Below are positions 6,598 through 11,240 of a stretch of DNA of 11,240 bases, piece by piece. Source of the stretch: a virus (lineage: Duplodnaviria > Heunggongvirae > Uroviricota > Caudoviricetes). The stretch covers positions 1 to 11,240 of IMG/VR virus record IMGVR_UViG_2537561823_000007. One strand, given 5' to 3'. Numbering within the stretch: the first letter of the stretch is position 1; each line of letters begins with the position of its first letter. The position numbers and the translations under genes are program-made. The notes beneath the pieces are model-generated. The model did no database searches. It was not told the DNA's origin and saw only the letters and a list, made by a program, of their open reading frames with translations.

Positions 6598-7644
6598 GTG
6601 CGGGTATTACTTCGACCTGTTCTGGTGCCGGAACTTGGGGTGGTTATCGTTAAGCCAGGTCGTGAATCCATGCAGGTATTCCATAACGGCAGAGTGCTGG
6701 TTGAACCGGAGCCAAAAAGCATGCGCGGTCTGCCGTCCGGAGTCGTTCCTGCTGTTCGCCAGCCGCTGGCGGAGGATAAATCATTACTGCCATTTTTCAG
6801 CGATGAGCGGGTGATTCGTGCTGCTGGTGGTGCTGGTGCATTGTCTGACTGGCTGTTACGCCACGTTAAATCCTGCCAGTGGCCTCATGGTGACTATCAT
6901 CACAGTGAAACCGTCATACATCGTTATGGTACCGGCGCAATGGTGTTGTGCTGGCACTGCGACAACCAGCTGCGTGACCAGACATCCGAATCACTCGAGC
7001 AACTTGCTCATCAAAACCTGTCAGCATGGATGATTGACGTCATACGCCATGCAATGAATGGCACGCAGGAGCGGGAATTATCGCTGGCTGAATTATCTTG
7101 GTGGGCAACCATAAATAACGTAGCGGACGCACTACCGGAGACGGTATTACGTCGTTCGCTGGGATTGCGCGCGGAAAAAATTCGCTCAGTATACCGCGAG
7201 AGCGACATCGTGCCGGGAGAGCAGACTGCCACCAGCATACTGAAGCAGCGCACAAAAAATCTTGCGCCGCTGCCTCACGCCCACCAGCAAACCCCGCCAC
7301 AGGAAAAGACGGTGGTCAGCATTGCTGTTGATCCGGAGTCTCCGGAATCTTTCATGAAACGACCTAAACGTCGCCGCTGGGTTAACGAGAAATACACACG
7401 CTGGGTGAAGACACAGCCGTGTGCGTGTTGTGGTAAGCCAGCCGACGATCCCCATCACCTGATTGGTCATGGTCAGGGCGGAATGGGGACAAAATCTCAC
7501 GATATTTTTACGCTACCGCTGTGTCGGGAGCATCACAACGAGCTTCATGCGGATCCGCTGGCGTTCGAAGAAAAGCATGGTTCTCAGGTTGATTTAATTT
7601 TTCGTTTTCTTGATCACGCCTTTGCAACTGGCGTGCTTGGGTAA
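6598..7644 (+). CDS. DUF968 / YdfU-like protein with C-terminal HNH-like Cys/His cluster (348 aa)
   Basis: GTG start. C-terminal CACCGKPADDPHHLIGHGQGGMGTKSHDIFTLPLCREHHNELH resembles a zinc-binding HNH-like motif. Lies upstream of rusA as is common in lambdoid nin regions. Confidence 0.75.
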   Translation: MRVLLRPVLVPELGVVIVKPGRESMQVFHNGRVLVEPEPKSMRGLPSGVVPAVRQPLAEDKSLLPFFSDERVIRAAGGAGALSDWLLRHVKSCQWPHGDYHHSETVIHRYGTGAMVLCWHCDNQLRDQTSESLEQLAHQNLSAWMIDVIRHAMNGTQERELSLAELSWWATINNVADALPETVLRRSLGLRAEKIRSVYRESDIVPGEQTATSILKQRTKNLAPLPHAHQQTPPQEKTVVSIAVDPESPESFMKRPKRRRWVNEKYTRWVKTQPCACCGKPADDPHHLIGHGQGGMGTKSHDIFTLPLCREHHNELHADPLAFEEKHGSQVDLIFRFLDHAFATGVLG

Positions 7645-7656
7645 AAGAGGTGACTG

Positions 7657-8016
7657 ATGCTCATAGATTTGGTTTTACCTTACCCGCCGACGGTGAACAC
7701 TTACTGGCGACGCCGTGGCAGCACATATTTTATCTCGGAGGAGGGAAAGCGTTATCGCCGTGATGTGGCGCTTATTGTTCGCCAGCAGCGACTGAAATTA
7801 AAGCTGTCCGGACGGCTGGCGATAAAGGTGATTGCAGAGCCACCGGATAAACGTCGTCGTGACCTGGACAATATCCTGAAAGCACCACTGGATGCACTGA
7901 CACATGCGGGGTTGCTTATCGACGACGAGCAGTTTGATGAAATCAATATTGTGCGCGGTCAGCTCGTTCCTGGTGGGCGACTGGGGATAAAAATCACAGA
8001 ATTGGGGTGCGCATGA
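7657..8016 (+). CDS. rusA: RusA-family Holliday-junction resolvase (119 aa)
   Basis: AAGAGG ribosome-binding site. Sequence PYPPTVNTYWRRRG... and DKRRRDLDNILKAPLDALTHAGLLIDDEQ match the RusA signature (RRRDLDN...K...DAL) as I recall it from DLP12 RusA. Confidence 0.85.
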   Translation: MLIDLVLPYPPTVNTYWRRRGSTYFISEEGKRYRRDVALIVRQQRLKLKLSGRLAIKVIAEPPDKRRRDLDNILKAPLDALTHAGLLIDDEQFDEINIVRGQLVPGGRLGIKITELGCA

Positions 8017-8702
8017 ATAACCAGTATTTACAGTTTGTGCGTGAGCAGCTCATTATCGCCACCGCTGATTTGAGTGGGGCAACAAAAGGTCAGCTTGAAG
8101 CCTGGCAGGAGAATGCCATGTTTGATACAGGGCGTTACAGGCGTAAAAAAATCCGGTACCGAGATGAAGTGACCGGAAAAATGATTACGCGGGATAATCC
8201 ACCAATCCCGGGGAAACAATCGCTGGCGAAGGGGACGTCAATTCCTCTGGTCAGTCCGGTTGAGTTTTCGACATCATCGTGGCGGCGGGCTGTTCTGTCT
8301 CTTGAAGAACATCATAAAGCCTGGTTGTTATGGTGTTACAGCGGGAGTATTTGTTGGGAATATCAGATCGCGATAACACAGTGGGCGTGGAATGAATTTA
8401 ATACTCAATCCGGTACCAGAAAAATTGCAGGGAAAACGCAGGAACGCCTGAAAAAATTAATCTGGCTGGCGGCGCAGGCAGTAAAAGCAGAACTTTTTGG
8501 TGGGGAAGGTTATGAATACCAGGAGCTGGCATTACTGGCGGGAGTGACAACTAAAAACTGGTCCAAAACATTTACTCGTCACTGGGTTGCAATGAAACAC
8601 ATTTTTCACCGACTGGATAGTGAGGCTTTATTGTTTGTAATGAGAACACGTTCAAAACAAAAGGCGGCATTTTCAAAGCAAAGTGTTGCAAAAGTAGATT
8701 GA
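8013..8702 (+). CDS. Q-like late-gene antiterminator (229 aa)
   Basis: ATG at 8013 overlaps the rusA stop (ATGA). MNNQYLQFVREQLIIATADLSGATKGQ... resembles what I recall of Qin QuuQ. Followed by a tR'-like terminator and the late region. Confidence 0.7.
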   Translation: MNNQYLQFVREQLIIATADLSGATKGQLEAWQENAMFDTGRYRRKKIRYRDEVTGKMITRDNPPIPGKQSLAKGTSIPLVSPVEFSTSSWRRAVLSLEEHHKAWLLWCYSGSICWEYQIAITQWAWNEFNTQSGTRKIAGKTQERLKKLIWLAAQAVKAELFGGEGYEYQELALLAGVTTKNWSKTFTRHWVAMKHIFHRLDSEALLFVMRTRSKQKAAFSKQSVAKVD

Positions 8703-8765
8703 AAGGCATATATTTCATGCAAATCTGATATTTTGCCGATTTTGTACGTGATGGCAAAAGCAAAC

Positions 8766-8792
8766 AAAACCCGCCCACAAGCGGGTTTTTTT
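8766..8792 (+). terminator. tR'-like intrinsic terminator downstream of the Q gene
   Basis: ACCCGC-CCACAA-GCGGGT hairpin followed by a run of seven T. Confidence 0.75.
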
Positions 8793-8874
8793 GTGCCACT
8801 TATCTCGGATAGAAATGGTGAATGCGCTGGTGGAGGAAGTAAGGGTAATTTTTAACCAGGTGATTCTTGAATGC

Positions 8875-8903
8875 TTGCAACATTTATTTCGTAACGTTAT
8901 TAT
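8875..8903 (+). promoter_or_regulatory. Near-consensus sigma-70 promoter driving the tRNA cluster
   Basis: -35 TTGCAA at 8875..8880, 17-bp spacer, -10 TATTAT at 8898..8903, about 9 bp upstream of the first tRNA. Confidence 0.65.
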
Positions 8904-8912
8904 CCTGCGCCC

Positions 8913-8988
8913 GGCCCTTTAGCTCAGTGGTGAGAGCGAGCGACTCATAATCGCCAGGTCGCTGGTTCAAATCCAGCAAGGGCCACCA
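8913..8988 (+). tRNA. tRNA with anticodon CAT, Ile2 (lysidine)-type, ileX/ileZ-like
   Basis: Manual cloverleaf: acceptor GGCCCTT/AAGGGCC, D-arm GCTC/GAGC, anticodon loop CTCATAA, T-arm GCTGG-TTCAAAT-CCAGC, discriminator A, encoded CCA. Very close to recalled E. coli ileX. Confidence 0.85.
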
Positions 8989-8989
8989 A

Positions 8990-9066
8990 CCGTCACCAGT
9001 TCATCAGGAAAGAGCGTCAACCCTTTAAGTTGAGTGTGCGAGGTTCGAGTCCCCGGTGGCGGTCCA
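8990..9066 (+). tRNA. Atypical tRNA, anticodon TTT (Lys-like) with C at position 33 and 9-nt D-loop
   Basis: Acceptor CCGTCAC/GTGGCGG (one G-U pair), anticodon stem TCAAC/GTTGA, loop CCTTTAA, T-loop TTCGAGT with one A-C mismatch in the T-stem, encoded CCA. Assignment tentative. Confidence 0.55.
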
Positions 9067-9068
9067 GT

Positions 9069-9144
<76 letters not shown>

Positions 9145-9147
9145 TAT

Positions 9148-9222
<75 letters not shown>

Positions 9223-9496
9223 GCATTTGAAATAAGCCTTATTGTATTGCAGCACTGGCGTATTTTTTATTACGTGGGAGCAGGTTGTTTTAAGAGACAT
9301 TCTGTTCTCTGGCTATAATTTGAGGCCAGGTGTAGCCTCAGTGCTGATTTTTTTACGACAGCAGAATGGTGCATTATCGGTGGAGATTTTGTATTTCCTG
9401 GCAGGGTCGGTGATGCATCATTCCGATGTTGTAAGCATCGCTCAGAATAACGTTGAGATTAATCGCGTACTAAGCAAAACCTGGAAATACATCCTT

Positions 9497-9524
9497 AACC
9501 GCCGCACCAGGCGGTTTTTTTTAT
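9497..9524 (+). terminator. Intrinsic terminator in the late leader
   Basis: ACCGCC-GCACCA-GGCGGT hairpin followed by eight T. Confidence 0.7.
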
Positions 9525-9639
9525 TCATTTTTTTTTCATGGCTCGCTACGGCGGGCCTTTTTCATATCCTCGCCACACCCGGCGCATATCACATCAAATA
9601 ACGCCGCGCAAAAGGCATCTGCGGGTGCCTTTGACGGGG

Positions 9640-9665
9640 TGTTTTTACGGGCCGCTGGTGGCCCT
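9640..9665 (+). terminator. Intrinsic terminator/attenuator just upstream of the lysis genes
   Basis: GGGCC-GCTGGT-GGCCC hairpin followed by a T-run; an AAGGCA/TGCCTT hairpin precedes it at 9612..9633. Confidence 0.6.
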
Positions 9666-9689
9666 TTTTTATTTACAGGAGAAAAACGT

Positions 9690-10079
9690 ATGTCTGAACC
9701 CTTATCCGGTTCCGGCACGGCTGCGGCGCTCGGTGGGGCGACGGTGTACGGGCTGTTTACCGGAACGGATTTCGGGATTGTGTTTGGTGCGTTCGCCGGG
9801 GCGTTATTTGTGGCAACGATGCCGCAGGCGCTTTCAGTCTGGCGTGTGGTGGCGCATTTTTTGGTGTCGTTTATCGTCGGCGTGCTGGGGGCGCGCGTGC
9901 TGTCAGCCTGGATTGCATCAAAAACAGGGTATGACGGTACATCGGCAGATGCGCTGTGTGCGGTGCTGGTATCGGTGGTGTCGGTGAAGATTCTGTCGTT
10001 CATCCACCAGCAGGATATTGCATCGCTGGTGTCCGGTGTGTTCTCCCGTCTGCGGGGTGGAGGCGGTAATGTTAAGTAA
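9690..10079 (+). CDS. Putative holin / lysis membrane protein (129 aa)
   Basis: ATG at 9690 with AGGAG ribosome-binding site 8 nt upstream. Several Gly/Ala-rich hydrophobic segments (GATVYGLFTGTDFGIVFGAFAGALFVA, VVAHFLVSFIVGVLGA). First gene of the lysis cassette. Confidence 0.6.
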   Translation: MSEPLSGSGTAAALGGATVYGLFTGTDFGIVFGAFAGALFVATMPQALSVWRVVAHFLVSFIVGVLGARVLSAWIASKTGYDGTSADALCAVLVSVVSVKILSFIHQQDIASLVSGVFSRLRGGGGNVK

Positions 10080-10344
10080 CCTTCCCGGATTACTGAATGT
10101 GGTGTTAAGCACGGTTATCGTGCTGACGCTCTTTTTTTATCGTCGTGGTGATTCCAGACATAAACCGCTGATGTCGTGGCTGGCCTGGCTGCTGATGCTG
10201 CTGTATGCCTTTGCGCCACTTTGTTATCTGTGTGGTCGCTTTCCACCCGGTAACTGGCTGGTCGTCCTGATTAACCTGGTGTTCTGCGTGCTGGTGATAC
10301 GAGCACGCGGGAACGTATCAAAAATCCTTTCATTACGGAGGTGA
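10069..10344 (+). CDS. Small membrane protein, holin/antiholin-like (91 aa)
   Basis: ATG at 10069 overlaps the previous gene's 3' end by 11 nt. Two to three predicted transmembrane helices (LLNVVLSTVIVLTLFF, LAWLLMLLYAFAPLCYL, WLVVLINLVFCVLVI). Stop lies next to the endolysin ribosome-binding site. Confidence 0.55.
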   Translation: MLSNLPGLLNVVLSTVIVLTLFFYRRGDSRHKPLMSWLAWLLMLLYAFAPLCYLCGRFPPGNWLVVLINLVFCVLVIRARGNVSKILSLRR

Positions 10345-10346
10345 GT

Positions 10347-10724
10347 ATGCCCGGTAAATTCAGATTCAGTCGTCGAAGTGAGAAAAATCTGGAGGGCGTC
10401 AAACCACAGCTGGTTGCTGTTGTTCGCCGTGCGCTGGAGCTGACGGAGGTTGACTTCGGTATTACGGAAGGCCTGCGCAGTAAGTATCGCCAGAAGCAGC
10501 TGGTCGCGGAAGGGAAAAGCCAGACCATGAACAGCCGCCACCTGACCGGTGATGCGGTGGATGTTGTGGCCTACATTGGTAGCCAGGTGTCATGGGACTG
10601 GCCTCTGTACGAGAAAATCGCGCAGGCATTTAAGCAGGCTGCCGCAGAGCTGGGAACTGCCATCGAATGGGGCGGGGACTGGAAAACACTGAAAGACGGG
10701 CCTCACTTTCAGTTGAAGCGCTAA
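10347..10724 (+). CDS. Endolysin, peptidase M15 family (L-alanyl-D-glutamate peptidase-like, 125 aa)
   Basis: GGAGG ribosome-binding site then ATG at 10347. Zinc-ligand pattern SRHLTGDAVD ... DGPHFQ typical of M15/VanY-like phage endolysins. Confidence 0.8.
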   Translation: MPGKFRFSRRSEKNLEGVKPQLVAVVRRALELTEVDFGITEGLRSKYRQKQLVAEGKSQTMNSRHLTGDAVDVVAYIGSQVSWDWPLYEKIAQAFKQAAAELGTAIEWGGDWKTLKDGPHFQLKR

Positions 10725-10738
10725 TAACCAGGTGGTTT

Positions 10739-10921
10739 ATGAGCCGAAAACACTGGACACACAGAATGCCGCGAACGGCGGCGAAATGGGCACTGGTAGC
10801 GATACTGGTGCCTTTTTTCCTGGTGGGATGCGTTAGCCTGGATAAGGTGCGCCAGCTTTTCGATACGGCCTCGCAGGTCTGCGAAATTGTCGAAAGTGCC
10901 AGGCAGTGTATGCAGAACTGA
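10739..10921 (+). CDS. Small lipoprotein (60 aa), possible outer-membrane spanin component or lysis-associated lipoprotein
   Basis: AGGTGG ribosome-binding site then ATG at 10739. Signal peptide with lipobox LVGC (MSRKHWTHRMPRTAAKWALVAILVPFFLVGC) and a 29-residue mature part with two more Cys. Not proline-rich like lambda Rz1. Confidence 0.55.
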   Translation: MSRKHWTHRMPRTAAKWALVAILVPFFLVGCVSLDKVRQLFDTASQVCEIVESARQCMQN

Positions 10922-10954
10922 TCGCCTGTAAGAGCAGAATATTGTTGAATCTAA

Positions 10955-11240
10955 GTAAGCGGCTCGTCAGAACCGTATTGATATTTACTGAGAGCTCAGA
11001 TCAACTTTCCAGGGCAACAGATCGCGTACCCGGTTTGCCGGCCAGTCCTGGATATGTTCAATGACGTAGCGCAGCCACTTTTCTGGCTCCACATTGTTCA
11101 GACGGCATGTGCCGATCAGCGAGTACAACACCGCCGCATGTTCACCACCGCTGTCGGAACCCGCGAACATCCACTTTTTCCGGCCTACGGCCACTCCCCG
11201 TAAGGCGTTCTCTGCGATGTTGTTGTCGATTTCCACCCAG
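10955..11240 (-). mobile_element. End of an IS66-family insertion sequence (continues beyond the window)
   Basis: GTAAGCG-type terminal sequence at 10955 followed by the 3' end of a transposase gene on the minus strand. Confidence 0.75.
10985..11240 (-). CDS. IS66-family transposase, C-terminal portion (5' end beyond the window)
   Basis: Translation ...ENALRGVAVGRKKWMFAGSDSGGEHAAVLYSLIGTCRLNNVEPEKWLRYVIEHIQDWPANRVRDLLPW matches the conserved IS66 transposase C-terminal motif (ENALR...GRKNWLFAGS...LLPW). Confidence 0.85.
   Translation of the reverse strand, partial: WVEIDNNIAENALRGVAVGRKKWMFAGSDSGGEHAAVLYSLIGTCRLNNVEPEKWLRYVIEHIQDWPANRVRDLLPWKVDLSSQ

Follow-up and report, generated by a model that had tools for sequence, protein, structure and literature searches.

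Background

phiP27, an Stx2e phage, is inducible and infectious, and its genes L28–L30 together with an unannotated lipoprotein gene make up its lysis cassette. These four genes, in an identical order and at about 90% DNA identity, occupy positions 9690–10921 of a stretch of 11,240 nucleotides from a Caudoviricetes virus (IMG/VR record IMGVR_UViG_2537561823_000007, positions 1 to 11,240), which we call the window. Two holin-family genes, an endolysin gene and a gene for a small lipoprotein are followed there by an insertion sequence (IS) of the IS66 family. phiP27 differs in having an insert of roughly 476 bp, absent from the window, between the endolysin and lipoprotein genes, and in having no IS. 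We report that the late lysis cassette of the window is intact and belongs to the phiP27 type, that the missing inner-membrane spanin (i-spanin) is a trait of the cassette family and not damage, and that the IS displaced nothing.

The spanins of phiP27 were listed by Kongari et al. (2018; PMC6139136) as a "separated" two-component system, with a 64-amino-acid (aa) i-spanin at 20348–20542 and a 51-aa outer-membrane spanin (o-spanin) at 20706–20861. Each of the two entries is a singleton family, and the 62 periplasmic residues of the two combined are the fewest among 528 two-component systems (PMC6139136), a figure that counts an i-spanin which we consider doubtful. The listed o-spanin is a homologue of the window lipoprotein. 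Both the phiP27 type of cassette and the o-spanin listing of this lipoprotein were thus already known (PMC6139136), and were not recognised in a preliminary description of the window.

The cassette is like lambda S-R-Rz/Rz1 and other two-component cassettes in its Q-dependent late-operon position and in its order, with holin and endolysin followed by an outer-membrane lipoprotein as the last gene. The components differ. Lambda has a dual-start S gene and a transglycosylase, whereas the window has two holin-family genes and an M15 peptidase; lambda has an Rz-like type II membrane protein, for which the window has no counterpart; and the window lipoprotein, predicted to be helical, is free of proline past its anchor and has only 29 residues there.

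The lysis cassette

The features of the window from the first lysis gene to the right edge are as follows.

9690–10079, plus strand: holin-family gene 1 (Phage_holin_8), 129 aa; PF16931, E 2e-22; phrog_198, holin
10069–10344, plus strand: holin-family gene 2 (Phage_holin_3_7), 91 aa; PF05449, E 5e-21; phrog_217, holin
10347–10724, plus strand: M15_C L-alanyl-D-glutamate endopeptidase (endolysin), 125 aa; PF13539 (Peptidase_M15_4); phrog_465, endolysin
10739–10921, plus strand: lipoprotein precursor, 60 aa, lipobox LVGC31; phrog_7528 (function unknown)
10788–10819, plus strand: RNA hairpin of 11 pairs followed by U6, inside the lipoprotein signal-peptide codons
10947–10954: left copy of the 8-bp target-site duplication, GAATCTAA
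10955–11240, minus strand: one end of ISCro1 (IS66 family), truncated at the edge of the window; its terminal inverted repeat begins GTAAGCGG
10985–11236, minus strand: 3' end of the IS66 transposase gene (C-terminus of the protein); PF03050 and PF13817; NF033517

The preliminary description had recognised two overlapping membrane-protein genes, an M15 endolysin and a 60-aa lipoprotein, and all of them are present where it placed them. The two membrane-protein genes, which overlap by 11 nt, score well above the Pfam gathering scores (79.9 bits versus 26.4 for PF16931 and 75 bits versus 25.4 for PF05449), and neither product matched an NCBIfam family. Topology prediction by hydropathy, which had been proposed as a check, gave 3–4 hydrophobic segments for the first protein and three for the second, at residues 5–23, 38–56 and 61–79. 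From its charge distribution (positive-inside rule) the second protein is predicted to be N-out/C-in, the topology of a class I holin. Experimental support within the cassette concerns the first holin only and comes by way of a homologue: deletion of a 130-aa homologue in porcine E. coli that produces Shiga toxin (STEC) abolished antibiotic-induced release of Stx2e, and the gene alone complemented the deletion (PMC12571312). The primer sequences of that study match the start of the holin 1 gene and the region upstream of it.

The endolysin scores 48.3 bits against PF13539 (cut-off 25), and its zinc-ligand motifs, SRHLTGDAVD and GPHF, can be read directly in the sequence. Its nearest relatives of solved structure in the PDB are both L-Ala-D-Glu endopeptidases, ChiX of Serratia (5opz, E 9e-43) and EndoT5 (2mxz, E 2e-23). 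Hydropathy analysis of the endolysin revealed no hydrophobic stretch, signal or signal-arrest-release segment, so the enzyme is expected to be cytoplasmic and to need a hole-forming holin for access to the wall.

The lipoprotein gene starts 14 nt past the endolysin stop and is preceded by a Shine-Dalgarno sequence, AGGTGG. No promoter-like or terminator-like site was found between the two genes. From this spacing, the ribosome-binding site and the lack of intervening signals, we infer that the lipoprotein gene is co-transcribed with the rest of the cassette as part of the Q-dependent late transcript.

The lipoprotein and its gene

The lipoprotein has the signal of an outer-membrane lipoprotein: a basic n-region with five basic residues, an h-region and a lipobox L-V-G-C31, with Val and no Asp at position +2; the signal and lipobox stretch reads MSRKHWTHRMPRTAAKWALVAILVPFFLVG/C31-V-S. 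Sorting to the outer membrane would be expected of such a precursor. The part after Cys31 comprises 29 residues, is predicted to be helical, and has a net charge of −1 and a moderate amphipathic moment. The preliminary remark that the protein is not proline-rich holds, as its single proline lies within the signal peptide and there is none in the 29 residues after Cys31.

The gene is genuine and subject to purifying selection. The ratio of nonsynonymous to synonymous substitution (dN/dS) is about 0.2 for the gene and 0.11–0.18 for the mature part among 50 distinct gene sequences. The lipobox, Cys48 and Cys57 do not vary among the Escherichia, Salmonella, Cronobacter and Yersinia sequences and are kept in more distant relatives too. 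The start at 10739, giving 60 aa, is favoured by the conserved N-terminal MxRKHWTHR and the Shine-Dalgarno sequence. Many database entries give the protein 84 aa (window 10667–10921), the gene callers having picked an ATG inside the endolysin gene, and RefSeq also holds a 51-aa version.

A full HMMER search of 1.84 billion proteins showed the lipoprotein family to be narrow, with 23 representatives at 50% clustering, all of them short. None of the 23 has a C-terminal membrane segment, and none carries an informative extra domain besides apparent frame-fusion artefacts. The window protein had no Pfam match at E up to 0.1, the models of colicin lysis proteins and entericidins included, and belongs to no NCBIfam family. 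We found no experimental paper on this lipoprotein in the literature. A unimolecular spanin of the T1 gp11 type was considered and rejected, there being no hydrophobic segment past residue 38 and, among the 23 representatives, no homologue that is longer and has a transmembrane segment at its C-terminus. A disruptin of the phiKT gp28 type, which is cationic, amphipathic and signal-less, was also rejected, given the mature charge of −1 and the lipoprotein signal.

The hairpin at 10788–10819 has a folding energy of −19.8 kcal/mol (z −4.2). Synonymous sites in lipoprotein codons 17–26 are almost invariant, even in the Lelliottia gene of 56% identity, and only two changes were observed in the stem, both from G-U to G-C and one at the cost of a Leu-to-Pro replacement. 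This pattern suggests selection at the RNA level on a hairpin that may serve as a terminator, an attenuator or a 3' stabiliser of the lysis transcript.

Search for an inner-membrane partner

The cassette had been described as non-canonical, with no embedded Rz/Rz1 pair and no apparent inner-membrane spanin partner, and this was borne out. In a six-frame scan of the window from every start codon, no second lipoprotein and no type II membrane protein (one N-terminal transmembrane segment) was found in or near the cassette; the few open reading frames (ORFs) that encode just one transmembrane segment are kilobases distant, in the early region, and resemble shadow ORFs. No spanin is named in the RefSeq annotation of the prophage of about 50 kb to which the window belongs. 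Several candidates were rejected. An ORF embedded in the +1 frame of the endolysin gene (10549–10692) has no lipobox and no transmembrane segment and varies in length among relatives, and the 69-aa and 71-aa genes downstream encode proteins with no hydrophobic segment that belong to PHROGs of unknown function.

The lipoprotein gene lies 3' of the endolysin gene, as the o-spanin gene does in a lysis cassette. No i-spanin gene is embedded in it, overlaps it or adjoins it in the window, and 29 residues past the lipid-modified Cys, with no partner, do not give the length for bridging the periplasm. The lipoprotein therefore sits in the spanin slot yet is not classifiable as a spanin, given also that the part past the anchor is free of proline, carries a charge of −1 and has a moderate amphipathic moment. 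The comparison with spanin collections proposed in the preliminary description had a divided outcome: the lipoprotein is homologous to the published phiP27 o-spanin, and PHROGs, Pfam and NCBIfam have no spanin family that matches it.

The published i-spanin of phiP27 bears directly on this question. The 64-aa ORF starts with TTG and lies inside the insert of about 476 bp, opposite a 90-aa minus-strand ORF that starts with ATG (L003 4765–5037; 20332–20604 in the phiP27 record). Along its whole length the 90-aa protein matches phrog_36812 (E 5e-20), and the 64-aa ORF matches nothing. A single diverged copy (L061) retains the 90-aa protein, 46% identical and with no stops, and has a stop codon in the plus frame. 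The NCBI annotation pipeline (PGAP) calls the minus-strand gene in the insert, and the phiP27-type insert is found in 3 of 5,426 complete E. coli genomes, versus at least 220 for the cassette. Taken together, the TTG start without a match, the stop in the plus frame of the diverged copy, the minus-strand call and the rarity of the insert suggest that the published i-spanin is a shadow ORF opposite a real 90-aa gene. The lipoprotein ORF itself (L003 5106–5294) is unannotated in the phiP27 record, where L32 was called in a different, wrong frame.

Insertion of ISCro1

An IS66-family element had been noted about 34 bp past the lipoprotein stop. It is ISCro1, and the gap measures 33 bp, the stop ending at 10921 and the IS beginning at 10955. 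Several chromosomes of enterotoxigenic E. coli (ETEC) are 100% identical to the window, among them NZ_CP025859, where the full ISCro1 of 2,699 bp has tnpA, tnpB and tnpC annotated on the opposite strand. The terminal repeats match (GTAAGCGGCTCG and GTAACCGGCTCA), and the ends start GTAAGCG. In these genes and ends, in the 8-bp duplication and in the DDE and C-terminal domains of its transposase, the element agrees with the IS66 family and shows no notable difference from ISCro1.

The octamer GAATCTAA stands on both sides of the IS, so the target-site duplication that had been recommended for checking is there, and it occurs as a single copy in the IS-free but otherwise identical prophage of NZ_CP025851. 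When the IS flanks are joined, they differ from NZ_CP025851 by four mismatches in 1,856 nt. The genes downstream are alike in both, with the 69-aa hypothetical protein (WP_000958717), a spacer of 850 bp and terS, and the order endolysin, lipoprotein, 69-aa gene and terS is found in hundreds of IS-free genomes. ISCro1 thus arrived by a recent, simple transposition into a 90-bp spacer after the lipoprotein gene, and nothing was deleted or displaced.

It had been proposed that the IS removed or separated downstream lysis or packaging genes, possibly contributing to prophage defectiveness, and an IS-free relative of the same gene content had been named beforehand as evidence to the contrary; NZ_CP025851 is such a relative. 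An IS that took away an inner-membrane spanin, or other lysis or packaging genes, would fit with an element 33 bp past the last lysis gene and with the lack of a spanin partner. A complete 2,699-bp IS with its 8-bp duplication, an empty site with identical gene content on both sides, and the same gene order in those hundreds of genomes refute this explanation and leave it extremely improbable. What ISCro1 has done is to lengthen the late operon by 2.7 kb of antisense DNA, placed between its lysis genes and its packaging genes; the insertion is routine and sheds no light on the fitness of the prophage.

A second, independent ISCro1 is present in a different ETEC prophage (NZ_LR882997, L093 5335/8034), 12 bp upstream of the window site, oriented like the window copy and flanked by a duplication of its own, CAGAATAT. 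The AT-rich spacer that follows the lipoprotein gene has repeatedly been a target of ISCro1.

Related cassettes

In all 66 non-redundant related loci, the lipoprotein gene lies downstream of a lysis cassette. It directly follows the M15 gene, as in the window, in 35 of them; in other loci a GH108-type endolysin takes the place of M15 before the lipoprotein, and in the Lelliottia locus the lipoprotein comes after a holin of another kind and a GH108 endolysin.

Phages with a homologous holin pair differ in what occupies the slot of the lone lipoprotein. Salmonella phage F1055 has homologous PF16931 and PF05449 holins at the same position and a canonical embedded Rz/Rz1 in that slot. Phage mEp390 has a homologous pair at the same position and a short overlapped pair of i- and o-spanins, and in a Klebsiella phage the same holin pair is likewise followed by short overlapped spanins. 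The second holin of F1055 and mEp390 is about 43% identical to that of the window, and their endolysin is lysozyme-type, in contrast to the M15 enzyme of the window. Rac-SA53 has the same holin pair and no lipoprotein; its slot holds only LT-II toxin genes.

A small membrane protein is encoded directly upstream of the lipoprotein, with a 1-nt spacer, in 28 of the 66 loci and is absent from the window. One type has 37 aa and a transmembrane segment at its C-terminus, and the other is a pair of 48 and 44 aa (phrog_4493 and phrog_1115); examples are L004 5067–5180 and L022 3698–3996. The DUF3927 protein encoded upstream of the holin in relatives was considered as a relation of theirs and found to be unrelated.

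The holin-pair cassette is found repeatedly beside AB5 toxin genes, either upstream, as with stx2e in phiP27 (L003) and stx2k in phiSTEC1575-Stx2k (L004), or, for LT-IIa in Rac-SA53 (L005), directly after the endolysin. The window-type endolysin is very close to ChiX, which belongs to the chitinase secretion system of Serratia. The toxin-gene neighbours and the likeness to ChiX hint at a link between this type of cassette and the release of toxins or other proteins.

Prophage setting

The prophage is lambdoid, resides in enterotoxigenic E. coli and is integrated beside ompW. In NZ_CP025859 it extends over about 50 kb, from the integrase at 57366 to an ompW remnant near 107400. Upstream of the lysis genes the window contains the following features.

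7657–8016: RusA gene
8007–8702: Q antiterminator gene; PF06323, E 9e-92
8913–9222: tRNA cluster, four genes by ARAGORN (CAT, Lys-TTT, Thr-TGT and Gly-TCC)
9497–9525, 9540–9565 and 9649–9672, plus strand: three stacked intrinsic-terminator-like hairpins with T-runs, just 5' of the first holin gene

Terminator-like sites number 12, against 3.1 expected in shuffles, and the position of the three hairpins before the first lysis gene fits Q-antiterminated late transcription. RefSeq annotates an 86-aa "hypothetical protein" at about 9341–9601 that spans two of the three hairpins; it is probably not a gene. In the tRNA cluster RefSeq has only three genes, omitting the Lys-like one at 8990–9066 and annotating the CAT tRNA as Ile.

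Outside the window, cro (L001 948–1191) and gpJ (L091 6863–10341) of the NZ_CP025859 prophage are annotated as frameshifted. Unless these frameshifts are assembly errors, this prophage is probably defective from causes that have nothing to do with the IS, and since both genes are already frameshifted, the suggestion that the IS contributed is not needed to account for defectiveness.

Discussion

We are moderately confident in the overall reading of this locus as an intact phiP27-type cassette that is i-spanin-less by design, with a lipoprotein that takes part in the outer-membrane step and a clean insertion of ISCro1 behind it. Under this reading, Q-antiterminated transcription would pass the three terminators and enter the cassette. 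The two holin-family proteins would permeabilise the inner membrane, one of them probably acting as a regulator of the other, and the cytoplasmic M15 L-Ala-D-Glu endopeptidase would cross through the holes and cleave the cell wall. The small outer-membrane lipoprotein would be made from the same transcript, at the site where related cassettes have a spanin pair. With 29 residues past its lipid anchor it is too short to bridge the periplasm as Rz/Rz1 does. Purifying selection on the gene, and its occupation of the Rz/Rz1 slot of phages with the same holin pair, point to action at the outer-membrane step, alone or with a non-canonical partner, as its most likely role.

Several observations weigh against this reading. 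The lipoprotein is linked to lysis by position, which is weak evidence, and as described above it belongs to none of the spanin families searched. Its AlphaFold model is one long helix of low confidence (mean pLDDT 66). Rac-SA53, which has the holin pair alone, indicates that some prophages, at least, can do without the lipoprotein, and the small membrane protein encoded upstream of it in other loci could be a partner lost from the window.

The last point leads to an explanation that we consider quite unlikely, namely that the lipoprotein is a true o-spanin whose partner is the upstream small membrane protein (37-aa, 48-aa and 44-aa types; about 40% of relatives) and that its loss here has left the outer-membrane step defective. 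The single nucleotide between the small-protein stop and the lipoprotein ATG suggests translational coupling, and Kongari et al. allow that the role of an i-spanin could fall to unusual membrane anchors (PMC6139136). However, outside the membrane the small proteins have only about 13–17 residues, which together with a partner of 29 residues would not reach across the periplasm, and these proteins are absent from the most distant homologues (Citrobacter, Lelliottia and Salmonella) as well as from phiP27. An unlikely explanation of another kind is that the lipoprotein is unconnected with lysis, being a conversion or exclusion protein like Bor, Cor or Llp, and that a spanin-less cassette relies on shear or low divalent cations to breach the outer membrane. 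The lack of homology to any spanin, the holin pair without lipoprotein in Rac-SA53, the accessory genes often inserted between endolysin and lipoprotein, and the observation that recognisable spanins are lacking in about 13% of phages (PMC6139136) are in keeping with such a protein. Yet the gene is co-oriented with the endolysin gene, 14 nt past its stop and with no promoter-like site of its own; its link to lysis cassettes persists in several genera and through three endolysin/holin combinations; and it holds the Rz/Rz1 position of F1055 and mEp390.

If the lipoprotein does act at the outer-membrane step, as we prefer to think, a tentative and rather doubtful proposal is that it is a stand-alone disruptor of that membrane, a lipid-anchored, disulfide-containing amphipathic helix that has no inner-membrane partner. 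Bacteriocin release proteins (the colicin lysis proteins) and entericidins are very small lipoproteins, with a mature peptide of 25–33 residues, that perturb the envelope with no such partner. They resemble the window lipoprotein in size and anchoring only; there is no sequence relationship, and the genetic context is different.

The cassette and the IS are ordinary, and the orphan lipoprotein poses a modest question. The cassette family is common in ETEC and STEC prophages, often adjoining toxin genes, and so bears on how toxins exit the cell. The sole published spanin assignment for the family rests on an i-spanin ORF that our analysis suggests is no gene. If that ORF is spurious, these phages would either be without an outer-membrane step or carry it out by a lone 29-residue lipopeptide. 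If the stand-alone proposal is true, such a lipoprotein would join spanins and disruptins as a third means of disrupting the outer membrane, and hundreds of prophages in E. coli, Salmonella and Citrobacter, many of them next to AB5 toxin genes (stx2e, stx2k and LT-II), would use it.

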